The notes under the pieces were generated by a model that saw only the letters and a list, made by a program, of their open reading frames with translations, was not told where the DNA came from and ran no database searches. Position numbers and translations under genes: made by a program. A stretch of DNA of 64,000 nucleotides from a candidate division WOR-3 bacterium (lineage in GTDB: Bacteria > Hydrothermota > Tepidihabitantia > Tepidihabitantales > Tepidihabitantaceae): the NCBI GenBank assembly GCA_965648905.1, contig CBFGIT010000008.1, forward strand, positions 22,255 to 86,254, written 5' to 3'. Positions 8,567 through 24,976 of the stretch are shown piece after piece. Positions within the stretch are counted from its first letter, which is position 1. Each line of letters begins with the position of its first letter.

Positions 8567-9221
8567 CGACTGAACTGACAGAATCCTGGTCGTAGAGCCT
8601 CCTGATGCTTGAGATAACCGGCCGAGGTTGCGTAACTAACTGGGTTTCCGATGCTCAAGTTCAGGACCGTGTTCCACGCCGCGGAAACGGCCCGAACTGA
8701 GCAATAAGAATAACCATAAGCTGAGAAATGTCAATAGCACCTGCCACCAACTCAAACCAAAAGTCCCCGGCTGGCCGGGGTTCTCCGGTGACGCCGGAAT
8801 GTTGCCCGAGCGAGTGCTTCTGCCCGTCACCGCCGATAACCGTGCCATCGGCGCTGCCAGCCCGCTCCGGCCTGCTGCCGGGCCGGCGACCGACATTGAC
8901 AGAGCCTAATCCCGGCTGTAGCCTTAGTCGTCATTGTCAGACTGCCGAACGTTCCGGGGTGCGTGCGGAACTATCGTGTGGTGTCAGTCCACTCCCTGCC
9001 CCATGCGCCGCAATGCACCCCTTTGCTCGCACGGCTTGATTCCGGTCTGACCGACGCCGACCCGACCAACCCGTGACGCGAACTGCTAATCACATGCCCG
9101 ACAGAACTCAAGCCGCCGGCTCAACTCGATTTCCTCCCCTGTTGCTGGCCGGCGCGGCATGCCCATCGCCCTGATGCTCACCCCTGGCTGTCGGCACCTT
9201 TCCATTTTTCGCTCCCGGACG

Positions 9222-10777: not shown

Positions 10778-11404
10778 CTAGTCTACTGCCTGTACGCTCC
10801 TCGGCTGCAGGGAGAAATCTATCCCGGTCACCGGCTGGCCGTTCTCGATGACAACCGGTTCAGGATACGTCGCGCACGAGTACCCTGACTTCATTGCCTT
10901 CACTGTGTACGAACCATCGGCCAGACCGGCAATCGTGTAGGTGCCGTCATCTCCAGTCATGGCATAGCGGCCGCAACTGCCGGCCGTTACCTTGGCCCCG
11001 GCAATTGGCTCACCGGTCGCCGCGTCAGTAACCCGGCCGGAAATTGAGCCGCTGCCACCTCCACCGCCCATCGGTCTGAGCGCGATGTCGATTCCGGTCA
11101 CGGCCTGACCTTCCTCAACCCGCACCGGCGTGGGGTAAGTCTTGGCGTAGTAGGCGCCGCACTTCATCGCCTTGACCGAATAGCTGCCCGGGGCAAGACT
11201 ACTGATGGTGTAGGTTCCGTCGCCTGCGGTAGTTGCGGAGCGACCGCAGCCACCGACCGTAACCTTGGCGCCGGCGATTGGTGCGCCGGTCACGGAATCG
11301 GTAATCGTCCCTGATATCGACCCGGTTCCAAGGTCGCCCTTGGGAACCGAGACCGCAGCAAACAATAGCGTCGCACACGCGACCAGGACTGCGAACGTCT
11401 TCAT
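10778..11404 (-). CDS. Secreted protein with two tandem carboxypeptidase-regulatory-like (CarboxypepD_reg) domains
   Basis: Signal peptide MKTFAVLVACATLLFAAVSVP. Two ~90-aa internal repeats (ISGxxTDxxTGxPIAGAKVTxGxCGR...DGTYTIxxLAxGSYTVKAMKxGY...PVTGIDxxL). Confidence 0.65.
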   Translation of the reverse strand: MKTFAVLVACATLLFAAVSVPKGDLGTGSISGTITDSVTGAPIAGAKVTVGGCGRSATTAGDGTYTISSLAPGSYSVKAMKCGAYYAKTYPTPVRVEEGQAVTGIDIALRPMGGGGGSGSISGRVTDAATGEPIAGAKVTAGSCGRYAMTGDDGTYTIAGLADGSYTVKAMKSGYSCATYPEPVVIENGQPVTGIDFSLQPRSVQAVD

Positions 11405-11504: not shown

Positions 11505-12251
11505 GTGTTCAGACTTCTGCTCCTTATCCTGCCCGGCTTGGTTCTCGGTCAGTTCGTCGAACTCGGCCCCGGCGGCACGCTCCTGATGAACGTGCCCTAC
11601 TGCGGCGGCTGAGGCGACGGTGAGCGGTACCAGGTTCTGGTACTTGCCTCCGAGATGCCCGGGCCCTGCACCATCGATTCGGTCCAGCTCCTTTGCGGCA
11701 GCGATGAGTATGACCACGGCATCTTCTACAACTCGCTCATCCTCGCCTGCCACACATCGGTCGGCGAACTGGAGAGCACCTTTGACCGTAACTACACAGG
11801 CAACGTCCCAGAAACCGTTATGTCCGCTAACCCGCTCGTGCTGCAATGGGTCAACAACCAGTGGCACGGGCTCGCATTCAACCGCCCGTTCAGCTACAAC
11901 GGCATCGACAATCTGATTCTCGAATACCGCTGGCAGGGTGATGACGGCAACTCGGTCTACGACCGTGGGTTCTACACGGTCGGCAACCGAGCCTGTGACG
12001 CCCGGTCATCAACCGCCCCGCGCGGCACCCCTCGCAACTACATGCCACGCCACCGCATCTTCTACTCGCTCACCGCGGTCGAAGAACCCGCCGCTCTCCG
12101 GTCAAGCCGACCGTCGCCTTCGGTCTGTGCCGGCACCGACCACGGCCTGCTCTACGACGCTCTCGGCCGACCGGTCGCGCAGACCCCAACCGGCGTCTAT
12201 TTCCGGGTCCAACCTCGGGGCCGCTCGGCCCGTCTGCTTATCATCCGGTAG
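11505..12251 (+). CDS. Secreted protein with T9SS-like C-terminal sorting domain. Signal-peptide exon (GTG 11505) joined to body through an in-frame TGA at 11610; candidate selenocysteine/recoding site or pseudogene
   Basis: Same frame throughout: MFRLLLLILPGLVLGQFVELGPGGTLLMNVPYCGG-TGA-GDGERYQVLVLASEMPGPC...GVYFRVQPRGRSARLLIIR. The downstream ORF 11655..12251 alone lacks a signal peptide. Confidence 0.4.
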
Positions 12252-12263
12252 CGGGCTTTTTCG

Positions 12264-12292
12264 TTAGACATTGGACATCACATCGCTATAAT
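12264..12292 (+). promoter_or_regulatory. Near-consensus sigma70-type promoter TTAGAC-17-TATAAT for the flxD-like operon
   Basis: TTAGAC at 12264-12269, 17-nt spacer, TATAAT at 12287-12292, about 17 nt before the ATG at 12310. AT-rich island in a GC-rich background. Confidence 0.45.
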
Positions 12293-12309
12293 GACCTCTT
12301 ACCCTACCA

Positions 12310-12756
12310 ATGAGTATCGACGACCCGCCGAACGCAGGCTTTGAACCAAAGATCGTCGCGTTCCTGTGCAACTGGTGCTCCTATGCCGGTGCTGACCTGG
12401 CCGGCATCTCCCGCATCCAGTACCCGCCGTCAATCCGCGTCATTCGCGTCCCCTGCTCAGGCCGGGTTGACCCGTTCTACATCCTGAAGGCGCTCCAGAA
12501 CGGTGCTGACGGCGTGCTCGTCTCCGGCTGCCACCCGGGCGACTGCCACTACCTTACCGGCAACTACGTTGCCCGGCGCCGGTTCGCAGTGCTCAACGAC
12601 CTCCTGGAGTTTGCCGGCATCGACCCGGGCCGGGTCAGCTTCTCCTGGGTTTCGGCTGCGGAAGGCGAGCGCTTTGCCGAAGTCGTGCGCGAAGTCACGG
12701 AGAAAGTCCGGCAACTCGGGCCGAACCGCAAACTGGTCAAGGAGTCGGTTGGATGA
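12310..12756 (+). CDS. MvhD/FlxD-like iron-sulfur subunit (methyl-viologen-reducing hydrogenase delta subunit family)
   Basis: CNWCSYAGADLAG...PCSGRV...GADGVLVSGCHPGDCHY, the MvhD signature. Confidence 0.85.
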   Translation: MSIDDPPNAGFEPKIVAFLCNWCSYAGADLAGISRIQYPPSIRVIRVPCSGRVDPFYILKALQNGADGVLVSGCHPGDCHYLTGNYVARRRFAVLNDLLEFAGIDPGRVSFSWVSAAEGERFAEVVREVTEKVRQLGPNRKLVKESVG

Positions 12757-13598
12757 ACCGCCAGGACCAGCTCCGCCAGCGTGCCCGGGAGCTGCTCGAA
12801 GGCAAAGAGGTAGTTCTGGTGCTCGGCTACCGGTCAGGCCGACGACCCGGAACTGCCACGCCCGCGTTCATCACCCGTCCTGAGGATGCCGACAAACTGG
12901 TCTTCGACGACCGCTGCGGCATGAACCTGGCCGCGTACCTGCCGCGCGTCAAGAGCCGAGGCAGGATTGCCATCGTTGCCAAAGGCTGCGACTCGCGTTC
13001 CATTGTCACGCTGCTTAAAGAGAAACAGGTCACGCGCGACCAGCTCTTCATCCTTGGAGTCGCCTGCGAGGGCGTCAAGGAGCAGGGCCGGCTCAGCGAC
13101 TCTTGTACCACCTGCGAATACCCCAACCCGGTAGTCTTCGACGAGATGATAGGAGACACATCTCGAGGACGCGATTCCGCATCGTGTCCCCGGGCCCAAA
13201 ACGACTTCGAGAAGCTCTCCGCGGATGAACGCTGGCAGGTATTGATGGACGACGTCTCCCGCTGCATCCGCTGCTATGCCTGCCGCCAGGTCTGTCCCAA
13301 CTGCTACTGTCCGACCTGCTTTGTCGACGCGAACAACCCGCAGTGGGTCGGCAAGACCACGTCCGGTCCAGACAACATGATGTTCCATCTCATGCGGGCC
13401 ATGCACATGGCCGGTCGCTGTGTCGAGTGCGGCACGTGCAGCCGGGCCTGCCCGATGAGTATTGACCTGATGAGGTTCAACCGCAAGGTAGCGCAGATAG
13501 TCAAAGACCGGTTCGGTGCGGTCGCGGGTCTGAACCCGGACGAACCGCCCGCCCTCGCCGCGTTTGACCCGAACGACCGGCAGGAGTTCATCAAGTGA
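12753..13598 (+). CDS. 4Fe-4S dicluster oxidoreductase subunit, HydB/AsrA/FlxC-like (shorter paralog)
   Basis: CIRCYACRQVCPNCYCPTC and CVECGTCSRACPMSIDL ferredoxin-type cluster motifs. ATGA overlap with the upstream gene. Confidence 0.7.
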   Translation: MNRQDQLRQRARELLEGKEVVLVLGYRSGRRPGTATPAFITRPEDADKLVFDDRCGMNLAAYLPRVKSRGRIAIVAKGCDSRSIVTLLKEKQVTRDQLFILGVACEGVKEQGRLSDSCTTCEYPNPVVFDEMIGDTSRGRDSASCPRAQNDFEKLSADERWQVLMDDVSRCIRCYACRQVCPNCYCPTCFVDANNPQWVGKTTSGPDNMMFHLMRAMHMAGRCVECGTCSRACPMSIDLMRFNRKVAQIVKDRFGAVAGLNPDEPPALAAFDPNDRQEFIK

Positions 13599-14671
13599 AA
13601 CCCGGCATCATCACGGCCCAAGAACTGGCTCGGCTCGTGGCCGAGTGGGCCAAGACCAGCGCGGTCTTTGCCCCGGTCAGGGTGAAGAACTGGACCGAGT
13701 TCCGGCGCATATCTTCGCTCGGCGAGGCCGACCTTACGCGCGTGAACACCAAGCTGTCTGCCCGCACTCTGCTCTTTCCTCAGTGCGAGACGATGTTCCG
13801 GTTCAGGACTGACCGGCCGGCAGACCCAGAAGAACCGGCCCTGCCTGAGAAACAGGTCATCCTCGGTATTCGTCCGTGTGATGCTGCCGGCATCGCACTG
13901 CTCGACAAGTTCTTCTGTGGTCAGGGCGAAACCGACACCTACTACCAGCGCCGCCGCGCCAAGACGGTGCTTGTCGGCCTTGCCTGCAATGCTCCGGCCG
14001 ACACCTGCTTCTGCTTGGCAGTTGGTGGTTCACCGGCAGGCTTGCGCGGGCTCGACCTGCTGCTCACCGACTTGGGCGACAGGTACCTGGCTGAACCAGT
14101 TACCGACGCCGGCGCTGCCCTTCTGATACCAATCGGAGAGACTCTCAGGCCGGCAACCGATGCTGATACGGCGAAGAAGCAGGAACTGGCCGAGCAGGCC
14201 GGCGCTGCGATTACCGGGCGCATCGACACCCCAAGACTCAAGGCCCTGCTCGACAACTCAGACCAGAGCCCGGTATGGGAGGAACTCAGCCTCGCCTGCG
14301 TCAACTGCGGAGCCTGCACCTTTGTCTGCCCGACCTGCCATTGCTTCGACGTCACGGACGAGACCGGCAAAGGCCAGGGCGCGCGCATCAGGGTCTGGGA
14401 CACCTGTCAGGCCTGCCTTTACTCCCAGCACGCCTCAGGCCACAACCCGCGTGCCACTCCTGCGGCCCGATTCCGCAACCGGACCATGGACAAGTTCAAG
14501 TACACGGTCGAAATATACGGCGAAGTCTCCTGCGTCGGCTGCGGCCGCTGCATCATCGAGTGTCCAGCCGGGATTGACGTTAGAGAAACGGTGCAGACGT
14601 TGACCGCAGCACTGCAGGCAGAACCGGAGCCGGACGCAGTGCAGAAGGCAAAGTGCAAAACAGGCAACTGA
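13595..14671 (+). CDS. 4Fe-4S dicluster oxidoreductase subunit, sulfhydrogenase-beta/AsrA/FlxB-like
   Basis: 358 aa. CVNCGACTFVCPTCHCFD and CVGCGRCIIECPAGIDV motifs. N-terminus resembles AsrA/HydB. Confidence 0.7.
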   Translation: MKPGIITAQELARLVAEWAKTSAVFAPVRVKNWTEFRRISSLGEADLTRVNTKLSARTLLFPQCETMFRFRTDRPADPEEPALPEKQVILGIRPCDAAGIALLDKFFCGQGETDTYYQRRRAKTVLVGLACNAPADTCFCLAVGGSPAGLRGLDLLLTDLGDRYLAEPVTDAGAALLIPIGETLRPATDADTAKKQELAEQAGAAITGRIDTPRLKALLDNSDQSPVWEELSLACVNCGACTFVCPTCHCFDVTDETGKGQGARIRVWDTCQACLYSQHASGHNPRATPAARFRNRTMDKFKYTVEIYGEVSCVGCGRCIIECPAGIDVRETVQTLTAALQAEPEPDAVQKAKCKTGN

Positions 14672-15021
14672 CATTGAGGGACCTGAAGGAACGGCTATTG
14701 GACTTCGCCACTGTGTGCTTGAAACTGCACGGCAAGCTGGGTCGCACTGTGCCCGGCCGGTACATTGGCGGTCAGATGATGCGCTCGAGTTCTTCTGCCG
14801 GAGCCAACTACTACGAGGCCTGTGGTGCGGAAAGCCGGGCGGACTTTGCCCACAAACTCCAGATCGTACTCAAAGAACTGCGCGAGACTGAGTACTGGCT
14901 GAAGCTCGCCGGTCGAGGCGGCCTACTCTCGCCGGATGACGTCAAACTAGCCGCAACCGAAGCGGACGAACTGGCTCGCATCATCGCTAAATCTGTCCTT
15001 ACTACCAAGTCGAGAACGTGA
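14653..15021 (+). CDS. Four-helix-bundle protein (TIGR02436 / 23S rRNA intervening-sequence protein family), copy 1
   Basis: GQMMRSSSSAGANYYEACGAESRADFAHKLQIVLKELRETEYWLKL is the family signature. Paralogous to 36835..37203. Inserted between the flxB-like and flxA-like genes. Confidence 0.75.
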   Translation: MQNRQLTLRDLKERLLDFATVCLKLHGKLGRTVPGRYIGGQMMRSSSSAGANYYEACGAESRADFAHKLQIVLKELRETEYWLKLAGRGGLLSPDDVKLAATEADELARIIAKSVLTTKSRT

Positions 15022-15082
15022 TGAGCCTGCGTCCCGGTTTTGCCTTGCCCGTTCTGCACTTTGACTTGACCATTGCATCCTC

Positions 15083-15919
15083 ATGAATCCCTATCTCCCG
15101 ACACCTGTCAAGGTCGCCCGCGTCACCGTTGAGAACGACGCCCGCGACCTCAAGACCTTCGACCTCTCGTTTGTCGAACCCGAGGCCCGCAAGTCATTCA
15201 ACTTCATTCCGGGCCAGTTCGCTTTCCTCTCCATCCTCGGCGTGGGCGAAGCGCCGTTCGGCATCGCCTCTGCCCCTTCCGAAGAACTAATCAAGTACAC
15301 GGTCAAGCGGGTCGGTACCTTCACGACTGCGCTGCACGAGCTGGAACCGGGCGCGGTCGTCGGCATGCGCGGGCCCTGGGGCAACTCCTACCCATTTGAC
15401 CTGATGCAGGGCAAAGACGTCGTCATCGTCTCCGGCGGCTTCTCGTTCACCACCCTGCGCTCGACCATCGTCTATCTGCTCGACCCGGCCCGCCGGTCCC
15501 AGTTCGGCAGGATAACTGCGGTCTACGGTGCCCGCTCGAGCGGCGAGCTGCTCTACAAAGACGAAATCAAAGCCTGGGAATCAAGCCCCGACCTTGACCT
15601 GCACCTCTGCGTTGACCGGCTCGGCGGTGCGGCCTGGCCTAAGACCGAAGGCTTAGTCCCCAACGTGCTCAAACAGGTTGCGCCCTCAGCCGCAAACGCG
15701 GTCGCACTGGTCTGCGGTCCGCCGGTCATGATTCGCTTCACCCACCCGGTCCTGGAGCAGCTCGGATTCAGGCCGGAACATGTTTTTCTATCACTGGAGA
15801 ACCGGATGAAATGCGGCATCGGCAAATGCGGCCACTGCAACATCGGGCCCAAGTACGTCTGTAAAGACGGCCCGGTCTTCTCCTACGCCCAGCTCAAGAC
15901 CCTCCCGGCCGAGTACTAA
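15083..15919 (+). CDS. FAD/NAD(P)-binding oxidoreductase subunit with C-terminal 2Fe-2S (HydG/AsrB/FlxA-like)
   Basis: Ferredoxin-reductase-type FAD- and NAD-binding folds. C-terminal CGIGKCGHCNIGPKYVCKDGPVF. Confidence 0.8.
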   Translation: MNPYLPTPVKVARVTVENDARDLKTFDLSFVEPEARKSFNFIPGQFAFLSILGVGEAPFGIASAPSEELIKYTVKRVGTFTTALHELEPGAVVGMRGPWGNSYPFDLMQGKDVVIVSGGFSFTTLRSTIVYLLDPARRSQFGRITAVYGARSSGELLYKDEIKAWESSPDLDLHLCVDRLGGAAWPKTEGLVPNVLKQVAPSAANAVALVCGPPVMIRFTHPVLEQLGFRPEHVFLSLENRMKCGIGKCGHCNIGPKYVCKDGPVFSYAQLKTLPAEY

Positions 15920-17461: not shown

Positions 17462-18427
17462 CTAAATCGCTTCGATAGTCGACGGCGGCTTGGCCGTGAT
17501 ATTATAGGTCACGCTCACCACACCCGGCACTTCGGTCGTGATGCGTGAGGCGAGCCTCTCCAGCTTCTCGAACGGCAGACGAGTCACGGTCGCGGTGACT
17601 GCGTCCGTGCTCTCCCAGCACCGGACCTCAATCTGGTGTCCGAAGTCCCGCTTGCCTGCCCTCATGCCGGTCACCCTGTCGTTGTGCAGGATGGCAAGAA
17701 ACTGGAACGCGCCCGAGCCCTTAAGTTCCTGCTCGACAATCAGGGTCGCCTTGCGCACGACCGCAACGCGCTCGGGCGTCACCTCGCCGATGACGCGCGC
17801 GGCCAGAGCCGGGCCTGGGAACGGCGGCCGGGCAAAGATTTCTTCGGGCAGGCCGAGTTCCTTGCCCACGCGGCGAATCCCGGTCTTGCGCAGTTGCAGC
17901 ACCGGCTCAAGTACTCGGTACCCGAACGCGGCCTGGGTGTCGATGCCGAGTTGTTCGAGAATGTTGTGCTGCCGCTTCACGCCCGCGACCGTCTCCTCAA
18001 CGTCGGTCCAGTTCGTGCCCTGCAACAAGTACTTGGCCCCGCTCTCCTTCACGAGGCGACCGAACACCTTCTTGTAGAAAGTCTGAGTAATCGCCTCGCG
18101 CTTCTCCTCCGGGTCGGTCAGCCCTTCAAGCGCGGCGAAGAACTCGTCCTCGGCGTGGACCAGTTCGACCGCAACGCCCAGCTTCCTGAACACCTCGACG
18201 ATGTACTCCGGCTCGCCCTCACGCATGATGCCGTTGGCGATGAAGAAGGTCTTCAGCCGCTCGCCCAGCGCGCGGTGGCCGATCATCGTCACGACCGACG
18301 AATCCACGCCACCGGACAAGGCGTTCACGGCCCGGCCGCTTCCCACGGTCCTCTTCAGGCTCTCGACCTGCTCGGCGACAAACTGCTTCGGATTCAGCTC
18401 TTCAAGCGGTATCTCTTTGACGTTCAC
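17462..18427 (-). CDS. guaA: GMP synthase PP-ATPase subunit (archaeal-type split GuaA, subunit B)
   Basis: PP-loop ALSGGVDSSV and the GMP synthase C-terminal dimerization region. No glutamine amidotransferase domain in this ORF. Confidence 0.8.
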   Translation of the reverse strand: MNVKEIPLEELNPKQFVAEQVESLKRTVGSGRAVNALSGGVDSSVVTMIGHRALGERLKTFFIANGIMREGEPEYIVEVFRKLGVAVELVHAEDEFFAALEGLTDPEEKREAITQTFYKKVFGRLVKESGAKYLLQGTNWTDVEETVAGVKRQHNILEQLGIDTQAAFGYRVLEPVLQLRKTGIRRVGKELGLPEEIFARPPFPGPALAARVIGEVTPERVAVVRKATLIVEQELKGSGAFQFLAILHNDRVTGMRAGKRDFGHQIEVRCWESTDAVTATVTRLPFEKLERLASRITTEVPGVVSVTYNITAKPPSTIEAI

Positions 18428-18580
18428 TCTGTCTCCGTTTCGGGTTTGTTGTGCACTTGCACTAGGCTAGCCACGACCGGCGTGAGGTCAAGCATAAGAA
18501 GTAGGTGACTGTCCCTAGTTTCGTGGCGAGAAGCGGGCCGGGTGTTGCCCGGCCCGCTTGAAGGTGATGAGCGGTTTCGG

Positions 18581-21304
18581 CTAGTTGCTCTTGACCAGCT
18601 TGACCGTGCCCGAGAACTCGCCGGCCTGCATCTGCACGTAGTAGATGCCGGTGCCGACCGTCTGTCCGGCATCGTTCACGCCGTTCCACAGCAGGGCGTA
18701 GTACCCGGGCCGCTGCGCGCCGGCAAACAGAGTCCTGACCTGTCGGCCGTCCGCCGAATAGACCGTGATGCGCACGTCAACCGAGCGCGGCAGTTCGTAC
18801 CGCACGCCTGCGACCGCCGCGGACGGATTGGCGCCAAGGCTTCTGATGCTGAACCGCCTGGGCAACTCGGCTCCACCTACGACACCGGTGAGCGGAATAA
18901 CCTGAAACGAGTCCGAGACCATGTCGTTAGCCGGGTTCTCGTCGCCGGCTAGGAGCGTCCTGGCCTGAGCTGCGAACCAGCCGACCGGCTGTGCCACCCA
19001 GTTCGCAAAGCTGACCGTGTCGGTTGCCCCTGAGGCAATGGTCACTGACTGCGTGTCGGCATAGCCCGAGCTGATAAGGAACTCAACGTCAAAAGTCTCA
19101 GGCGACGAGCCGAGATTGACAACCACGGCCTGCGGCACTATCACCAGCCCTGAGTCAACCTGACCGACCGGCGCGACAATCACATGCGCAGCCACGTCGT
19201 GAGTGAGTGCGACCGGCGTGATGTCGCCGGTGATGGTCCAGGCAAACGGCTGTTTCGAGCCGGTCGCGACGTTCTGTGCGCCGACCCAGATTGCCCACTC
19301 GCCGGTGTCAGGCGCGTTGATGCGCGCGCACTCTTCGACGTTGACCGCGTCCCAGGTGCCGGGGTTGGGCTGGGACTGACCGCCCGAGTACTTGTTACCC
19401 CGGTACTCAGTGCCGCCCGGCGCGATCAGTTCGAGGTTCAGGTCGTTGACCAGTGTCGGGTTGGCGCTGGGCGCGGCCGCGGTATCGGTCCACGCCAGGC
19501 ACGCACGCAGCGGGATAGACGAGTTGACGCGGAAGCGAATCTCCTTGAACTGACCGGTGGCAAGCCCGACCGTGTCGTCCATTATCATGAGCTTGCGCTC
19601 ATCGCCCGGGAAATAGAGCACCGAGTCGGCATCGATGCGGCCCCAGCCGATGTCAAAGCTCGGGACTGTGTACGAACCGACGTTCGGGTCCGCCGACACC
19701 ATTGCCATCGAACGCAGCAGGGCCGCGCTGATATAGCTGATGCGGTTCTGCGGCTCGGGCGTGCCGGTCGGGTAGTACCCTTCCTGCAGGTAGCAGCGCA
19801 TCAGGCCGACCGTGCCGTTCGCGGTCGGCGTGGCCATCGAGGTACCGGACATCTGCGAGTAGGTGTTGGCGCCGGTGTTCCGAGCCGACCAGATGTCCAC
19901 GCCCGGGGCCACGACGTTGGGCTTGATGCGGTTGTCCTGGGTCGGGCCGCGGCTTGAGAAGCTGGCAATCGTGTTGGAGCTGGTGCCGCGATTGGTCGCG
20001 CCGATGGTCAGCACGTTCTTGGCGATGCCGGGGTTACGCAGCCGCCGGGTCGAAGTCTCGTTGCCCGCAGCCATCAGGTTCATGAAGTCCTTGTGCGCCC
20101 AGCCGAATGCGTCGGTCGAGGCGTCCTGAATCAGGTACGTTCCCTGGGTATTAGACCAGCCCCACGAGCCGGAATGCTGTTTGATTGGCCGAACCGAGTC
20201 GGGCAGAGTGCGGCCGAGGTAGACCGTGTCCCACATCGGCGTGTGGTCGGTCGGCACGAGGAACGACGTGCCGTTGGTGATGTCCACAAAGTAGTACCGC
20301 GCATCCCTGGCCATGCCGTCGTAATAGCTCGTGCCGCCGGTCACCGAGTCGTCACCACAGATACTGCCCGCCACATGGCTGCCGTGATACTGGCCTTCGC
20401 TTACGTCGGCCGAGCCGAACCGCTTGTACGCGACCACCTTGCGGTGGTCCGGCCACACTCCGGGCGGCGTGATGGCCAGCGCCGGGTCGCGGAACATGTC
20501 GTGCCCGGTATTGAGACCGGTGTCGGTCGCGGACATGATGACGCCCTGGCCGCGCACGCCGTTGCGCCATACCGGCCGCGCTGCCATGCTCGTATCCGGC
20601 GGCGACGTGGCCAGGTACCCGCTCTGCATCACCCATTGTGACGTGTTGTTGCAGAACGAGCCTTCGCGGAACTCCTGAATCCAGAACGTCTGAGACAGGC
20701 GGGCAACCGCAGCAATGTCGTCCGGCTCAAGTGCGGCCGTGATGGTCGTGCCGAAGCTCGATGTCATCTTCTCCTCCACGACACCGCCAGCAGCCTCGAT
20801 CGCATCGGTGATGGCAGTCGGGTCTTCGCCCTGCATAGCCAGGATGACCACACGCTTCATTCCGACCTCGTCGAGCAGACCGGGCTCGAGCTTGTACGCC
20901 GGCTGGAACAGCCCGACCCAGCGCACGAATGGCCGGGCCTTGGCCTGGGCGACCTGGTTCGGGTCGAGCTTGGCCAGCATCGCGTAGTGCGGCACATAAC
21001 CGAACACTCTGATGCCGTGCTCCTTTAGAGCCGAAACCCATGCCTGCTCAATCGGCCCGGTGAACTGCACGATGTAGTACTGGGTCGCCTGCCCGGTGCC
21101 GTCGAGCCTGAGTTCGGCCGGCAATGGTGGCTCGCCGGTGCGAGTGTCGATGACGTAGCCGCTTGAGAAACTGATGAAATTGGCTTCTTCTCCGGTAACC
21201 GGCTTGAACCTGCCCACCGGCCCCATGTCATACTTCGGGACGGCAAGCACCGGAACCGCCAGTACCGCAAGCAGCAGAGGTACTGCCTTTGATAGATGTC
21301 TCAT
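18581..21304 (-). CDS. Secreted subtilisin-like serine peptidase (S8) with T9SS-type C-terminal sorting domain
   Basis: Signal peptide. Asp (ATDTGLNTGHDMF), His (GSHVAGSI) and Ser (GTSMATP) catalytic motifs. C-terminal GIYYVQMQAGEFSGTVKLVKSN. Confidence 0.85.
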   Translation of the reverse strand: MRHLSKAVPLLLAVLAVPVLAVPKYDMGPVGRFKPVTGEEANFISFSSGYVIDTRTGEPPLPAELRLDGTGQATQYYIVQFTGPIEQAWVSALKEHGIRVFGYVPHYAMLAKLDPNQVAQAKARPFVRWVGLFQPAYKLEPGLLDEVGMKRVVILAMQGEDPTAITDAIEAAGGVVEEKMTSSFGTTITAALEPDDIAAVARLSQTFWIQEFREGSFCNNTSQWVMQSGYLATSPPDTSMAARPVWRNGVRGQGVIMSATDTGLNTGHDMFRDPALAITPPGVWPDHRKVVAYKRFGSADVSEGQYHGSHVAGSICGDDSVTGGTSYYDGMARDARYYFVDITNGTSFLVPTDHTPMWDTVYLGRTLPDSVRPIKQHSGSWGWSNTQGTYLIQDASTDAFGWAHKDFMNLMAAGNETSTRRLRNPGIAKNVLTIGATNRGTSSNTIASFSSRGPTQDNRIKPNVVAPGVDIWSARNTGANTYSQMSGTSMATPTANGTVGLMRCYLQEGYYPTGTPEPQNRISYISAALLRSMAMVSADPNVGSYTVPSFDIGWGRIDADSVLYFPGDERKLMIMDDTVGLATGQFKEIRFRVNSSIPLRACLAWTDTAAAPSANPTLVNDLNLELIAPGGTEYRGNKYSGGQSQPNPGTWDAVNVEECARINAPDTGEWAIWVGAQNVATGSKQPFAWTITGDITPVALTHDVAAHVIVAPVGQVDSGLVIVPQAVVVNLGSSPETFDVEFLISSGYADTQSVTIASGATDTVSFANWVAQPVGWFAAQARTLLAGDENPANDMVSDSFQVIPLTGVVGGAELPRRFSIRSLGANPSAAVAGVRYELPRSVDVRITVYSADGRQVRTLFAGAQRPGYYALLWNGVNDAGQTVGTGIYYVQMQAGEFSGTVKLVKSN

Positions 21305-21462
21305 GAACGCTCCTGTTGAGTCGCTTTACTGACCTCTTGCCGCCTGCGCTACGGCAAGACGAGAATTCGGAATCAGATATATTACATTGGACTGATGCTT
21401 CGGTCAAACGGTTCGAAACCCGGGCAGCATCATGCTCGGCCGAGCTGACCGAAGAGAAGTTG

Positions 21463-21579: not shown

Positions 21580-22731
21580 CTAGTCCATCTGCCGACGGAT
21601 GAAAGCCGGCACGTCAAGGTTGGACTTGTCCAGAGTGAGCACCGTCTCCCGGCCGACGCGCCGGCGCGTGATGGGAAACAGGTCAACGTGCTCAAGCAGG
21701 TCGGAGACATCGGCCAGTCGGGGCAATGGCTCGTTCAGCCCGGTCGCGATGAGCGTGACCTTGACCGTGTCGCGCAGGGACCGTGACCGGGCCGCGCCCA
21801 GGCGGACGTCAGCCTGACCATTGGTCGCGTGATAGACCGCAGTCGCGGCCTGGTCGACTTCTTTGAGCGTCATCGTCTCGTCACCGGTGATGTTCAGCAG
21901 CACTTTGCGCGCGGTCTCCACGGCCATGTCTTCAATCAACGGCGAGTGCAGGGCCCGCTGCGCTGCCTCGACCGCCCGGCCATCGCCGTTGGCCATGCCG
22001 ACCGACATGACCGCGCCGCCCCGCTCCGACATCACCGACCGGACGTCGGCAAAGTCGATATTGATGAGCTGGCGGGTAATGACGATTTCGGCAATGCCCC
22101 GCACCGCATCGAGCAGGACCTCATCGGCCAGCCGGAACGCCTCAAAGCAGGGCTGTTCGCCGTAGACCTCGAGCACGCGCTGGTTGGGCAGGACAATGAG
22201 CGTGTCGACGCTCGGCCGCAGGGCTTCGATACCCCCGGCGGCCTTTTCTTCGCGTGCCCGGCCTTCGAAAGTGAACGGCCGGGTGACAACCGCGACCACG
22301 AGCGCGCCCTGACGCTTCGCTTCCTGGGCGATGACCGGTGCGGCGCCTGTCCCTGTACCGCCACCCTCGCCCGCAGCGATGAAGACCATATCGAACCCGG
22401 CCAGATTCTCGCGCAGGGTCTCGATTGACTCCTCGGCGGCCTGACGTCCGATTTGCGGATTGCCGCCTGAACCCAGGCCGCCGGTCAACTGTGCGCCGAT
22501 CTGCACCTTGTTCGGCGCGAGTGACATCGAGAGTGCCTGCAGGTCGGTGTTGACCGCGTAGTGCTCGACGCCGGTCACGTTTGCGGCCATCATGTGATTG
22601 ATGGCGTTGCAGCCGGCGCCGCCGACTCCGAACACGCCAATCCGGGTGAGCGTTCGTTCCTCAACCGGTTCGATCATGCTTTGCCTCCTTTGTTTGAAAC
22701 CACTAATCAGCACCCGGCCGTCGGGCCGCAA
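21580..22731 (-). CDS. ftsZ: Cell division GTPase FtsZ
   Basis: Tubulin signature GGGTGTGAAPVIAQ and the N-terminal IGVFGVGGAGCNAINHM. Confidence 0.95.
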   Translation of the reverse strand: MRPDGRVLISGFKQRRQSMIEPVEERTLTRIGVFGVGGAGCNAINHMMAANVTGVEHYAVNTDLQALSMSLAPNKVQIGAQLTGGLGSGGNPQIGRQAAEESIETLRENLAGFDMVFIAAGEGGGTGTGAAPVIAQEAKRQGALVVAVVTRPFTFEGRAREEKAAGGIEALRPSVDTLIVLPNQRVLEVYGEQPCFEAFRLADEVLLDAVRGIAEIVITRQLINIDFADVRSVMSERGGAVMSVGMANGDGRAVEAAQRALHSPLIEDMAVETARKVLLNITGDETMTLKEVDQAATAVYHATNGQADVRLGAARSRSLRDTVKVTLIATGLNEPLPRLADVSDLLEHVDLFPITRRRVGRETVLTLDKSNLDVPAFIRRQMD

Positions 22732-22767
22732 CCAACTCCGGTGTCGTTCGCGGCCGATGGTCGAACA

Positions 22768-23988
22768 TCATACGAACCAGCTCCTGATTTCGTCCAGGAG
22801 CGAGTCCCAGAATCTTGCGCCTGGGGCCCGGGATGCCCAGCGGCCTTCCAGCCCGCCGCGGACCAGCCCGACCGCAGTGGCGAATGACGGGTCGCGGCTG
22901 ACCTCGTCCGGCCCGGACAGCCGGTCAGGACGACCGATCCGCACCGGCATTCCAAACACCTGCTCTGCCAGGACGTCAATGCCGGGAAGCAGAGCGCCGC
23001 CGCCGGTCAGAACCACGCCCGCGGCCAGACCCTCGACCAGACCGGACTTGCGCAGCTCGGCATCGGCCATGGTCAGGATTTCCTCAGCCCTTGGTTCGAT
23101 AATCGAAGCCAGCAGCCGCCGGGAAACCTGCTTGGGCCCCCGGCCTGAGGCATCCTCAACCGGAATCGACTCGTCCTTGTCCACAAGGCTGGCCATTGCC
23201 ACGCCGTGCCGGCGCTTCAGTTCCTCGGCCTGGCTGTAAGTCGTACGCACTCCGATCGCCACGTCTTTGGTGATGTTGCCCGCGCCGACCGGCAGCAGCT
23301 TCGTGAACCGGATTTCGCCGTCGCGGTAGATCGACAGGTCGGTCACACCGCCTAGGTCAACGAGCACCACCCCCTGGTCCCGGTCCTCCTGGTCACAGAC
23401 GCCGGACATCGTCGCGATCGACTGAAGCATCAGTGACCGGTTCCTGACGTCGAGCTGGTCGAGCACGCGATACAGGTTCGCCACCGCCGTGACCGCCCCG
23501 ATGATCAGCATCGCCTCGACTTCAAGCCGAACCCCAAACAGGCCCAGCGGGTTACGCACGCCTTTCTGGCCGTCAACGATGAACTGGGTCGGCACGACGT
23601 GCAGTATCTGCTCGTCGTTCGGCAGCCGGATTGTCTGGGCCTGCTTGATGACGTCCTCAACGTCGCGCGCGCTGATGCCGCGCTGGGGCCGGCGCACCGG
23701 AACCGCCCCGACTCCGGCGATGTGCTTGACGTGCTCGCCCGAGACTCCAACGTAGACCGGGTAGGCACGGAACTTGCCGCCTGAGGTCGCCTCGGCCGCC
23801 TTGACCGCGGTTTCGACCGACCCGGTCGCCTTGTCCAAATTGATAACCACGCCCTGCCTGAACCCGTCCGGCGGCGCCGTCCCGAACCCGACGATGCTCG
23901 TCTTGCCCGCGTTGTCGGTCTCGGCAATTACGACCGCCACCTTGGTACTCCCGATGTCGACTGCTGCGGTTCTCCTAACTCTTGCCAT
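22768..23988 (-). CDS. ftsA: Cell division protein FtsA
   Basis: Actin-fold ATPase. AVDIGSTKVAVVIAE and DLGGVTDLSIYRDG motifs. Confidence 0.9.
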   Translation of the reverse strand: MARVRRTAAVDIGSTKVAVVIAETDNAGKTSIVGFGTAPPDGFRQGVVINLDKATGSVETAVKAAEATSGGKFRAYPVYVGVSGEHVKHIAGVGAVPVRRPQRGISARDVEDVIKQAQTIRLPNDEQILHVVPTQFIVDGQKGVRNPLGLFGVRLEVEAMLIIGAVTAVANLYRVLDQLDVRNRSLMLQSIATMSGVCDQEDRDQGVVLVDLGGVTDLSIYRDGEIRFTKLLPVGAGNITKDVAIGVRTTYSQAEELKRRHGVAMASLVDKDESIPVEDASGRGPKQVSRRLLASIIEPRAEEILTMADAELRKSGLVEGLAAGVVLTGGGALLPGIDVLAEQVFGMPVRIGRPDRLSGPDEVSRDPSFATAVGLVRGGLEGRWASRAPGARFWDSLLDEIRSWFV

Positions 23989-24976
23989 TGAACTGCCTCC
24001 TTGGGAACGGTTGCGCCATGCCGGGAAGTATGCGCACCTCTTCTTCGAGGAGTATGCCCGTCTTTTCCTCGACCGTCGCTTTCACAATCTGAGCCAGCTC
24101 ATAGACGTCAGCGCAGCGCGCGCCCCCGGCATTGACGATGAAGTTGGCATGCTTCATCGAGACGCGCGCGCCGCCGACGCTACGGCCCTTCAGGCCGCAC
24201 TCCTCAATCAACCGGGCAGCCGGAATCCTCGGCTCAGAACCTGCCGTCCGTGACTCCGGATTCTTGAAGAATGACCCGGCCGAAGGCTCGGGCGGGTGGA
24301 TTGCCCGGCGTCGCTGCCGTACCTGGTCGGCAGTCTGACCCTGGGAAGAAACCGGTTCGAGCCGGAACCGGACCCGGGTCGCCACCAGCCCGTCGTCAAT
24401 CAACGGCTCCCGGTAGCGTACGGTCAGCTCTTCGCGCCGACGTCGCCAGGGACGACCGACGCGGTCCAGTCCGCTCACTTCGACGATAACGTCGGCGATA
24501 CACCGACCGAACGCACCGGCATTGGAAGCAAGCGCACCGCCTACGGTTCCGGGTATGCCGGCCAGAAACTCAACTCCGCCCAGCCCGGCGGCCTGAACTG
24601 CGCTAACCACATCGTCGAGCCTTGCACCAGCCCCGGCCTCGATGAATCCCGAACCCTGGCCGTCCGACCGCGGATACGCCGCACCGGATACTGGGGAAAC
24701 GTTGGCCAGAGCACCACCCAGCCTGACCACGACTCCGGCCAGACCCTGGTCCGACACGAGCACGTTCGTGCCCCGACCCAGGACCCGGCAGTCAACCAGC
24801 TCCTCATGGCAGAAGCCGAGCACACGGGCCAGGGCCGGCTCGGCTCTCACTTCGAGCATCAACTCGGCGTCGCCACCGATGCGGAAACTGGTGTGACGGG
24901 CGAGCGGCTCAGCCGGCCGAAACTCGACGTCGTCGTCGGCTAGAGCTGCTTCAAGACCTCGTCGCCAATCGTCCAT
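23975..24976 (-). CDS. murB: UDP-N-acetylenolpyruvoylglucosamine reductase MurB
   Basis: FAD-binding domain (FRIGGDAELM...LGRGTNVLVSDQG) and the MurB C-terminal domain. Confidence 0.9.
   Translation of the reverse strand: MDDWRRGLEAALADDDVEFRPAEPLARHTSFRIGGDAELMLEVRAEPALARVLGFCHEELVDCRVLGRGTNVLVSDQGLAGVVVRLGGALANVSPVSGAAYPRSDGQGSGFIEAGAGARLDDVVSAVQAAGLGGVEFLAGIPGTVGGALASNAGAFGRCIADVIVEVSGLDRVGRPWRRRREELTVRYREPLIDDGLVATRVRFRLEPVSSQGQTADQVRQRRRAIHPPEPSAGSFFKNPESRTAGSEPRIPAARLIEECGLKGRSVGGARVSMKHANFIVNAGGARCADVYELAQIVKATVEEKTGILLEEEVRILPGMAQPFPRRQFNGKS

Follow-up and report, generated by a model that had tools for sequence, protein, structure and literature searches.

A conserved in-frame UGA and a SECIS-type hairpin point to a new family of exported selenoproteins in candidate division WOR-3 and other uncultured bacteria

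We analyzed a gene on the forward strand of a 64-kb stretch of DNA (the window: 64,000 nucleotides of contig CBFGIT010000008.1, from a candidate division WOR-3 bacterium) whose reading frame, at 11505-12251, is interrupted by an in-frame TGA. Coordinates are window positions unless another locus is named. We conclude that the TGA is very probably (probability about 0.85) a site of standard bacterial selenocysteine (Sec) insertion, using SelB and a selenocysteine insertion sequence (SECIS), in an exported beta-sandwich protein that has a Cys-x-x-Sec turn near its mature N-terminus. A first-pass annotation of the DNA had proposed selenocysteine within a C-G-G-U motif, or else some other programmed recoding. 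The selenocysteine proposal is supported by conservation of the TGA across homologous loci, by a hairpin that is under selection and conforms to the bacterial SECIS (bSECIS) consensus, by the stem-loop of a selD gene at one of these loci (L011), and by a related clade with CxxC in place of CxxU. We classify the proteins as a new selenoprotein family with a known mechanism, since the mechanism of Sec recoding is textbook.

In the mechanism that we propose, a SelB-type elongation factor carrying Sec-tRNA(Sec) would bind the hairpin at 11626-11644, Sec would be delivered at the UGA at 11610-11612, and translation would run on into the 212 downstream codons. The product would be a 248-residue pre-protein with a signal peptide, a galactose-binding-domain-like beta-sandwich and, in most relatives, a type IX secretion system (T9SS) C-terminal sorting domain. 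The Cys-Gly-Gly-Sec turn would join the second and third strands of the sandwich. The elements on which this reading depends are:

11505..12251, + strand: complete recoded open reading frame (ORF), 248 codons (Sec is codon 36) plus TAG stop
11601..11612, + strand: C-G-G-U motif (CxxU); Cys33 is invariant across the Sec family in the alignment
11610..11612, + strand: UGA, putative Sec codon; TGA in 42 of 43 junction sequences
11626..11644, + strand: SECIS-type hairpin, 8-bp stem (seven Watson-Crick pairs plus a closing G.U pair), GUU triloop at 11634-11636

Gene layout and local use of TGA

The frame opened by the GTG at 11505 encodes MFRLLLLILPGLVLGQFVELGPGGTLLMNVPYCGG and then meets the TGA at 11610-11612. 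Beyond the TGA the unchanged frame reads GDGERYQVLVLASEMPGPC... and ends at the TAG at 12249-12251, and the junction peptide is ...NVPYCGG-TGA-GDGERYQVLVLASEMPGPC.... The GTG, the TGA, the unbroken frame to 12251 and the peptides are exactly as the first-pass annotation had given them. TGA is a genuine terminator in this window, as had also been claimed: ftsA stops with a TGA directly ahead of ftsZ, and 19 of the 46 calls of a crude gene map of the window end in TGA. Any recoding must therefore be local.

Composition and gene-map screens of the window for further in-frame TGAs returned just antisense noise or neighboring genes. The best-scoring other junction was ftsA-TGA-ftsZ, which was rejected because the TGA there ends ftsA. 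In this gene pair (21580-24081, - strand, with the TGA at 22768-22770), ftsZ continues in the frame of ftsA and so mimics a read-through candidate. The pair is part of a division and cell wall (dcw) cluster, with Mur ligases, a murG-type glycosyltransferase and ftsW at approximately 24.9-30.1 kb.

Conservation of the TGA and selection on both sides of it

Using the read-through protein as query, we found 69 homologs, nearly all of which have been called from MPGPC or VLVLASE, just 3' of the position of the window TGA. We fetched homologous loci with peptide patterns that match well 3' of the junction. Species-representative genomes gave 12 and metagenomes 30, and these 42 loci plus the window provided 43 sequences covering the junction. 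The TGA occupied the identical column in 42 of the 43 (P-[YF]-C-[GT]-[GDS]-TGA), the remaining sequence had AGA, and none had a Cys codon; conservation of this degree goes well past what chance would give. The frame was continuous across the TGA in all 43, with no indels. Alignment of orthologs at this column, which had been suggested as a check for Cys or Sec, thus yielded TGA nearly throughout, and the aligned Cys was found in a separate CxxC clade (see below). The loci are labelled candidate division WOR-3 (several), Candidatus Eisenbacteria (L011) or Candidatus Coatesbacteria (L012), or are unlabelled. L012 is a complete Candidatus Coatesbacteria chromosome whose gene copy is only 33% identical; the Coatesbacteria chromosome CP070755.1 carries a gene of the TGA family. 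A WOR-3-labelled relative of the window protein (P0003) is 79-80% identical.

The sole member of the Sec subfamily without the TGA (L015:826; contig ena:ERZ27279932:k141_814211) has AGA, encoding Arg. Its hairpin remains strong and carries a compensatory change of its own, from U-A to C-G. The AGA could be either a recent substitution or an error in this 1.6-kb contig. The L015 copy is 81% identical to P0070, another protein whose call lacks the N-terminus.

Purifying selection acts in one frame on either side of the TGA. Over the 20 codons of the mature N-terminus that lie 5' of the TGA, variability was 0.30 at third codon positions versus 0.12 and 0.10 at positions 1 and 2. The ratio of synonymous to nonsynonymous differences over the same 20 codons was 2932:2619 in the shared frame versus 623:4904 and 521:4881 in the other frames. 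Between the window copy and its closest relatives, the ratio of nonsynonymous to synonymous rates (dN/dS) was 0.07-0.13 upstream of the TGA and 0.09-0.26 downstream.

These data bear on the alternatives that the first-pass annotation had raised, namely a nonsense pseudogene or a sequencing error (or an assembly error) at 11610. A bare stop codon is what either would look like, and two relatives (L040/L041 and L045) do look degraded. However, the same TGA recurs in 41 independent loci drawn from a wide range of samples and assemblers, and the 42 of 43 sequences that have it span three candidate phyla. In the window lineage there is strong purifying selection on both sides (dN/dS 0.07-0.26), and the RNA element downstream is itself selected. 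Because the TGA is conserved and both sides are under purifying selection, we regard these alternatives as excluded for practical purposes.

Among the degraded copies, the one at L040:6423 and L041:6722 has lost the hairpin and is frameshifted in its C-terminal half, and the one at L045:2718 breaks off shortly past LLCGS. In L040 and L041 the hairpin and the intact ORF have been lost together.

A SECIS-type hairpin downstream of the TGA

The perfect hairpin GUACCAG-GUU-CUGGUAC that had been described at 11627-11643 is present exactly there, and a G.U pair between 11626 and 11644 lengthens its stem to 8 bp. The TGA is separated from the stem by 14 nt, rather than the 13 nt first given, and from the loop by 21 nt. 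The loop had been placed at about +24 to +27, which was near the mark; its exact position is +25 to +27, counting the U of the UGA as +1. The local 71-nt region folds better than shuffled sequences (z = -2.8). From the 35 distinct junction sequences, RNAalifold predicted exactly the 8-bp helix, and stem cells were paired in 95% of cases versus at most 53% in slid controls.

The hairpin is a selected RNA element whose stem is maintained by rare synonymous codons and by compensatory changes. Double changes were found at three stem pairs: UAC/GUA to UAU/AUA in L005 and L030, UAC/GUA to CAC/GUG in L015, and, in L021, G-C to A-U at the pair adjoining the closing G.U. Intermediates with U.G pairs are also seen in stems of the family. 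The stem overlaps the codons for R-Y-Q-V-L-V-L, and codon choice is therefore a stronger test than covariation. The stem Val codon was GTA in 26 of the 32 loci that encode Val there, compared to 4.7% GTA elsewhere in the same genes. The stem Leu codon was CTG in 33 of 35 (35% elsewhere), and the stem Gln codon was CAG in 34 of 34 (66% elsewhere). All four codons were used for the Val in the loop.

The published bSECIS consensus allows 3-9 nt in the loop, 4-16 bp in the stem and a distance of 16-37 nt from the UGA, with a minimum free energy of -7.5 kcal/mol or lower and a G within the first two loop positions, usually as G[G|U] (PMC13188914). The window hairpin lies within all of these limits, with a GUU loop, 21-nt spacing, a stem of 7-8 bp and -7.8 kcal/mol for the stem alone, which bears out the earlier suggestion that it was close to bacterial SECIS geometry. 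With the energy of the bare stem, 27 of the 35 distinct sequences pass. A comparable hairpin is weak or absent in homologs that have no TGA, even in those with the RYQ[VI]LVL peptide: the corresponding energies were -1.2 kcal/mol in P0088, -1.5 in P0089 (RYQILVL) and -2.9 in P0161 (RYQVLVL). The Cys form described below retains a 5-bp remnant with an AUA loop (-5.0 kcal/mol). A search of the window against Rfam at gathering thresholds returned three tRNAs only and no SECIS-type family.

The window element resembles the archetype from E. coli fdhF (UGA140) in having an in-frame UGA followed by a stem-loop within the ORF, with G-U opening a small apical loop. Measured with the same script, the fdhF loop (GGUC) lies 18 nt past the UGA and the window loop (GUU) 21 nt past it, and both elements fit the published consensus (PMC13188914). 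Unlike fdhF-type elements, that of the window is minimal, with a nearly perfect stem of 7-8 bp, a triloop and no bulged U, and the lower stem is not conserved across the window family. The two also differ in protein family, phyla and cellular location.

A related clade with Cys in place of Sec

An exhaustive phmmer search with P0048, a close homolog of the window protein, defined a superfamily of 496 cluster representatives at 50% identity. Most uninterrupted members of the superfamily read PF-W-G-x-x-Y-D-A-x-R-F-Q at the junction, with Trp in the Cys column and Ser, Thr, Ala or Val in the Sec column. This distribution implies that the CxxU pair arose within a single subfamily. Four clusters that form one clade (P0163, P0337, P0338 and P0339) read NRPF-C-G-D-C-NQSLR, and this NRPF-C-G-D-C aligns with the NRPF-C-G-D-U of L011. 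Cys aligned to Sec is the classic Sec/Cys pattern. The Cys-for-Sec form is limited to this one clade. The label of P0338, which occurs on 14 contigs, is Candidatus Sabulitectum (Fermentibacterota). Three contigs with the Cys form (L046-L048) were confirmed to have TGC at the site in their DNA. The Cys clade and the uninterrupted members of the superfamily encode both parts as one protein.

Selenocysteine decoding in a genome that carries the family

Located 5 kb 3' of the family gene in the Eisenbacteria locus L011 is a gene for a SelD homolog, with 40% identity to the E. coli protein. This selD (L011:8998-10050) itself contains an in-frame TGA, at 9052, in the column of the catalytic Cys17 of E. 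coli; forms of SelD with Sec in that column are well known. The selD stem-loop, GCGCAG-GUC-CUGCGC, is 33 nt from its UGA, and the hairpin of the family gene on the same contig, GUACCAG-GUC-CUGGUAC, is 21 nt from its UGA. The apical CAG-GUC-CUG is identical in the two, as would be predicted if one SelB reads both. A scan of all of the sequence for in-frame TGAs with a downstream hairpin (stem of 7 bp or more, G[G/U]N triloop) recovered the family and the L011 selD; the few other hits translate to junk and were rejected. One genome carrying the family thus decodes Sec. The trait is demonstrated for the Eisenbacteria contig alone, because sel genes were not found in WOR-3-labelled sequence.

Searches of the window and all loci by tblastn with E. 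coli SelA, SelB and SelD gave only the selD of L011. With ARAGORN, neither the window nor 36 loci gave a tRNA-Sec, and the neighborhoods of the family gene on three long contigs (L052-L054) had no Sec genes.

Several observations weigh against decoding as Sec. The window, all 64 kb of it, and every WOR-3-labelled flank lack selA, selB, selD and tRNA-Sec, and a database search with the L011 SelD returned no WOR-3-labelled protein; its matches were mainly labelled Anaerolineae or Thermoflexales, or were unlabelled. The AGA of L015, with its hairpin intact, could mean that a residue other than Sec may be tolerated, unless the contig is in error. The wider superfamily has Trp and Ser, Thr or Ala at the two columns. 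The fold is not of the thioredoxin type (see below), and any redox role is conjectured just from the CxxU motif. Covariation was counted in only 4 cells, as the stem hardly varies and shares its positions with conserved codons.

The absence of detected Sec machinery for any WOR-3-labelled contig, and the Arg codon of L015 next to a retained hairpin, would also be expected if the UGA were read through as a standard residue, by a near-cognate tRNA for Trp, Cys or Arg or by another factor, with the hairpin acting as a general stimulator of read-through. We consider this unlikely. The hairpin fits the bSECIS consensus in both geometry and loop sequence, and its apical stem-loop is the same as that of the selD SECIS in the L011 genome. 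The only uninterrupted close clade has Cys at the site, giving CxxC, and neither Trp nor Arg. Read-through of this kind would also predict frequent replacement by a sense codon, and this was seen in only one of the 43 sequences.

Three side observations concern these loci. In L011, the family gene is directly followed by a gene for a 717-aa thioredoxin-domain protein (DUF255/Thioredox_DsbH). A tRNA-Ala(CGC) is located approximately 5 kb upstream of the family gene in L002, L007, L008, L010, L035, L040 and L041. The ARAGORN prediction 'tRNA-Ala(cgc)' at L002:365-458 (- strand) is unusually long, at 94 nt, and may be a misprediction or contain an intron.

The encoded protein: signal peptide, beta-sandwich and C-terminal tail

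The protein can be divided into the following parts:

11505..11549, + strand: predicted signal peptide of the general secretion (Sec) type, MFRLLLLILPGLVLG (GTG start), read from sequence
11550..11609, + strand: conserved mature N-terminus, QFVELGPGGTLLMNVPYCGG, first strands of the beta-sandwich
11613..12074, + strand: rest of the galactose-binding-domain-like (PHR/CBM32-like) core, with motifs LLCGS, ACHT, NYxGNxP and WQGDDGNSVY
12147..12248, + strand: short C-terminal tail, LLYDALGRPV...GVYFRV...ARLLIIR, similar to a T9SS type A sorting domain in its final strands only

Residues 4-15 form a hydrophobic h-region (Kyte-Doolittle mean of 2.7), preceded by what by eye is a basic n-region, and cleavage would be expected ahead of QFVELG. 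Homologs begin with M[RK]xxLxLLL...A-x-A followed by [QED][YF]VELG at an equal distance.

P0048 is the only close homolog that has been called through the junction, and it has Arg at the site. Its structural model is a single beta-sandwich to which the upstream segment contributes strands (pLDDT of 88.7, and approximately 97 in the core), and the CxxU position is in the turn joining the second and third strands. A model of the window protein without its first 35 residues had a pLDDT of 74 and disordered core strands; this gap in confidence is just suggestive, because the underlying alignments differ. The models are all-beta, and their top structural matches were PHR, carbohydrate-binding module (CBM) family 32 and discoidin-type modules, CBMs of carbohydrate esterases and phage tail-spike domains, from which the core is modeled as a galactose-binding-domain-like sandwich. 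Most selenoproteins have a thioredoxin fold, and thioredoxin-fold oxidoreductases are the commonest CxxU/UxxC selenoproteins. Such a fold was ruled out here by the all-beta models, the position of the motif in a beta-turn, and the best matches to PHR, CBM32 and discoidin domains. Compared to PHR, CBM32, discoidin/F5/8-C and ephrin-receptor ligand-binding domains, the window family has approximately 10% identity or less and no profile match. To our knowledge, none of the PHR, CBM32, discoidin and ephrin-ligand-binding domains has Sec, or a CxxC or CxxU turn, at this position. The core domain had no match in Pfam-A or NCBIfam (release 20.0) for the window protein, P0048, P0001 or the Cys form.

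The single sandwich bears on a further alternative, in which the TGA is a true stop, the gene yields two products, an exported peptide of 35 residues and a beta-sandwich that is initiated internally and lacks a leader, and the hairpin serves in coupling, attenuation or mRNA stability. Public gene callers annotate the locus in this way: most database homologs begin at MPGPC or VLVLASE, and L054 has a separate call of a 36-aa ORF. In most loci, moreover, codon 15 past the TGA is ATG. Nevertheless, the 14 codons between the TGA and this ATG are conserved as protein, and L009, L010, L012, L038 and L039 have no ATG, GTG or TTG within 20 codons past the TGA. All 43 sequences encode the two parts in a common frame with no indels, and in both the Cys clade and the uninterrupted members of the superfamily they are one protein. 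In the models, the full-length homolog folds as one sandwich that includes the upstream segment, and the window protein appears to lose confidence without it. We consider two separate products quite unlikely, slightly more so than read-through as a standard residue, and favor a single Sec-containing protein.

A T9SS-like sorting domain had been claimed for the C-terminus. Relatives P0006, P0011, P0014 and P0029 score 23.8-32.1 bits against TIGR04183 (cut-off 23), but the window protein had no Pfam hit, and its C-terminal 65 residues had no TIGR04183 match even at E≤10. The window copy and its nearest relatives keep only approximately 35 C-terminal residues of the T9SS domain and fail the hidden Markov model, and they had no match to a T9SS C-terminal domain (CTD). 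The T9SS label is therefore not established for the window copy, which differs from T9SS type A cargo (TIGR04183/PF18962) in having only these approximately 35 residues of the CTD.

The signal peptide and sandwich, with the CTD in relatives, suggest that the protein would be exported, and by this route in those relatives. As judged from sequence, proteins of the relatives are probably displayed on the cell surface or released.

Members of the superfamily vary in architecture. The domain occurs in tandem in P0074, P0076, P0077, P0094 and others, with three copies in proteins of 550-580 aa and four or five in proteins of more than 2000 aa. In P0086 it is fused to an FGE-sulfatase/GldK-like domain. 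L012:10031-10546, P0117, P0212, P0163 and P0337 have no T9SS CTD and instead have a short conserved tail (...SLGxxKxxF[RM] or ...GxIKATLG[RK]); this tail could serve as an alternative signal for C-terminal sorting or anchoring.

Relationship to known selenoproteins and possible function

By Pfam and NCBIfam models, the family had no match in Table 1 of an inventory of 119 prokaryotic selenoprotein families from 2026, as far as that table, keyed by Pfam, NCBIfam and CDD, can be compared (PMC13188914). Neither WOR-3 nor T9SS nor signal peptides are mentioned in the available portions of that paper, of BSepDB and of the deep-Sep surveys. A full-text search for 'selenoprotein' together with 'type IX secretion' returned only a paper on rabbit nutrition that uses each term once, the literature searched contained no description of a T9SS cargo as a selenoprotein, and searches combining selenoprotein terms with the phylum names gave nothing relevant.

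Predicted selenoproteins of the cell envelope are already listed in the available part of the inventory, including an FCYXU-type TonB-dependent receptor and an MtrB/PioB-like barrel (PMC13188914), so an extracytoplasmic selenoprotein is not unprecedented. Like the window family, predicted extracytoplasmic CxxU selenoproteins place CxxU in an envelope or exported protein without a thioredoxin fold, and are known only computationally. The window family has no sequence or domain relationship to them and differs in being a soluble beta-sandwich rather than a beta-barrel, in the T9SS sorting domain of its relatives, and in that Sec forms greatly outnumber Cys forms. In selenoprotein families Cys forms usually dominate. 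The family stands out for the combination of export, a lectin- or CBM-like beta-sandwich, a near-exclusive Sec form and, in relatives, the export route.

From the motif alone, the CxxU pair would most likely form a reversible selenenylsulfide or bind a soft metal. A more specific proposal, which we offer tentatively and with somewhat less than even confidence, is that the family comprises T9SS-delivered, CBM32/PHR-like surface or secreted selenoenzymes or selenium-dependent binding modules, with extracellular redox or soft-metal chemistry at the N-terminal Cys-x-x-Sec turn, and that the Sec form has been kept almost exclusively across several uncultured phyla, some of them in the Fibrobacteres-Chlorobi-Bacteroidetes (FCB) group. 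If this is correct, selenoprotein biology would extend to T9SS cargo and to a fold without known redox members, and WOR-3 and Coatesbacteria would have an unrecognized Sec-decoding trait.

There are also consequences for annotation. Public pipelines split members of the family into a very short "ORF" and a "hypothetical protein" that is truncated at its N-terminus and has no signal peptide; at L054:9848-9958, the 36-residue signal-peptide fragment ending at the TGA is publicly called as its own ORF. Because the splitting is systematic, predictions of localization and function are wrong family-wide. The compact element, with a stem of 7-8 bp and a GUN triloop, is common to the family and to selD in the same genome, and is a possible handle for finding more Sec genes in these uncultured lineages.

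Genomic neighborhood of the window gene

Directly downstream of the window gene, at 12265-15919 (+ strand), are an mvhD-like gene (FlpD, 12310-12756), genes for two 4Fe-4S proteins and a gene for an NAD-binding Fe-S oxidoreductase, preceded by a near-consensus sigma-70-like promoter at 12265-12292 (11 of 12 matches). Cys is used in all of these proteins; in some organisms MvhD contains Sec, but the product of the mvhD-like gene in the window does not. On the other side, a divergently transcribed gene at 10778-11404 (- strand) encodes a likely exported protein whose N-terminus resembles a signal peptide and which has two CarboxypepD_reg domains. Further downstream, at 18584-21325 (- strand), is a gene for a likely exported 914-aa S8 subtilase with a FlgD_ig/T9SS-like C-terminal domain. 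A GMP-synthase-C/NAD-synthase-like gene follows the family gene within a few kb in the window (17465-18466, - strand) and in two other loci (L052:11779-12744 and L054:15349-16875), and this recurring neighbor hints at partial synteny.

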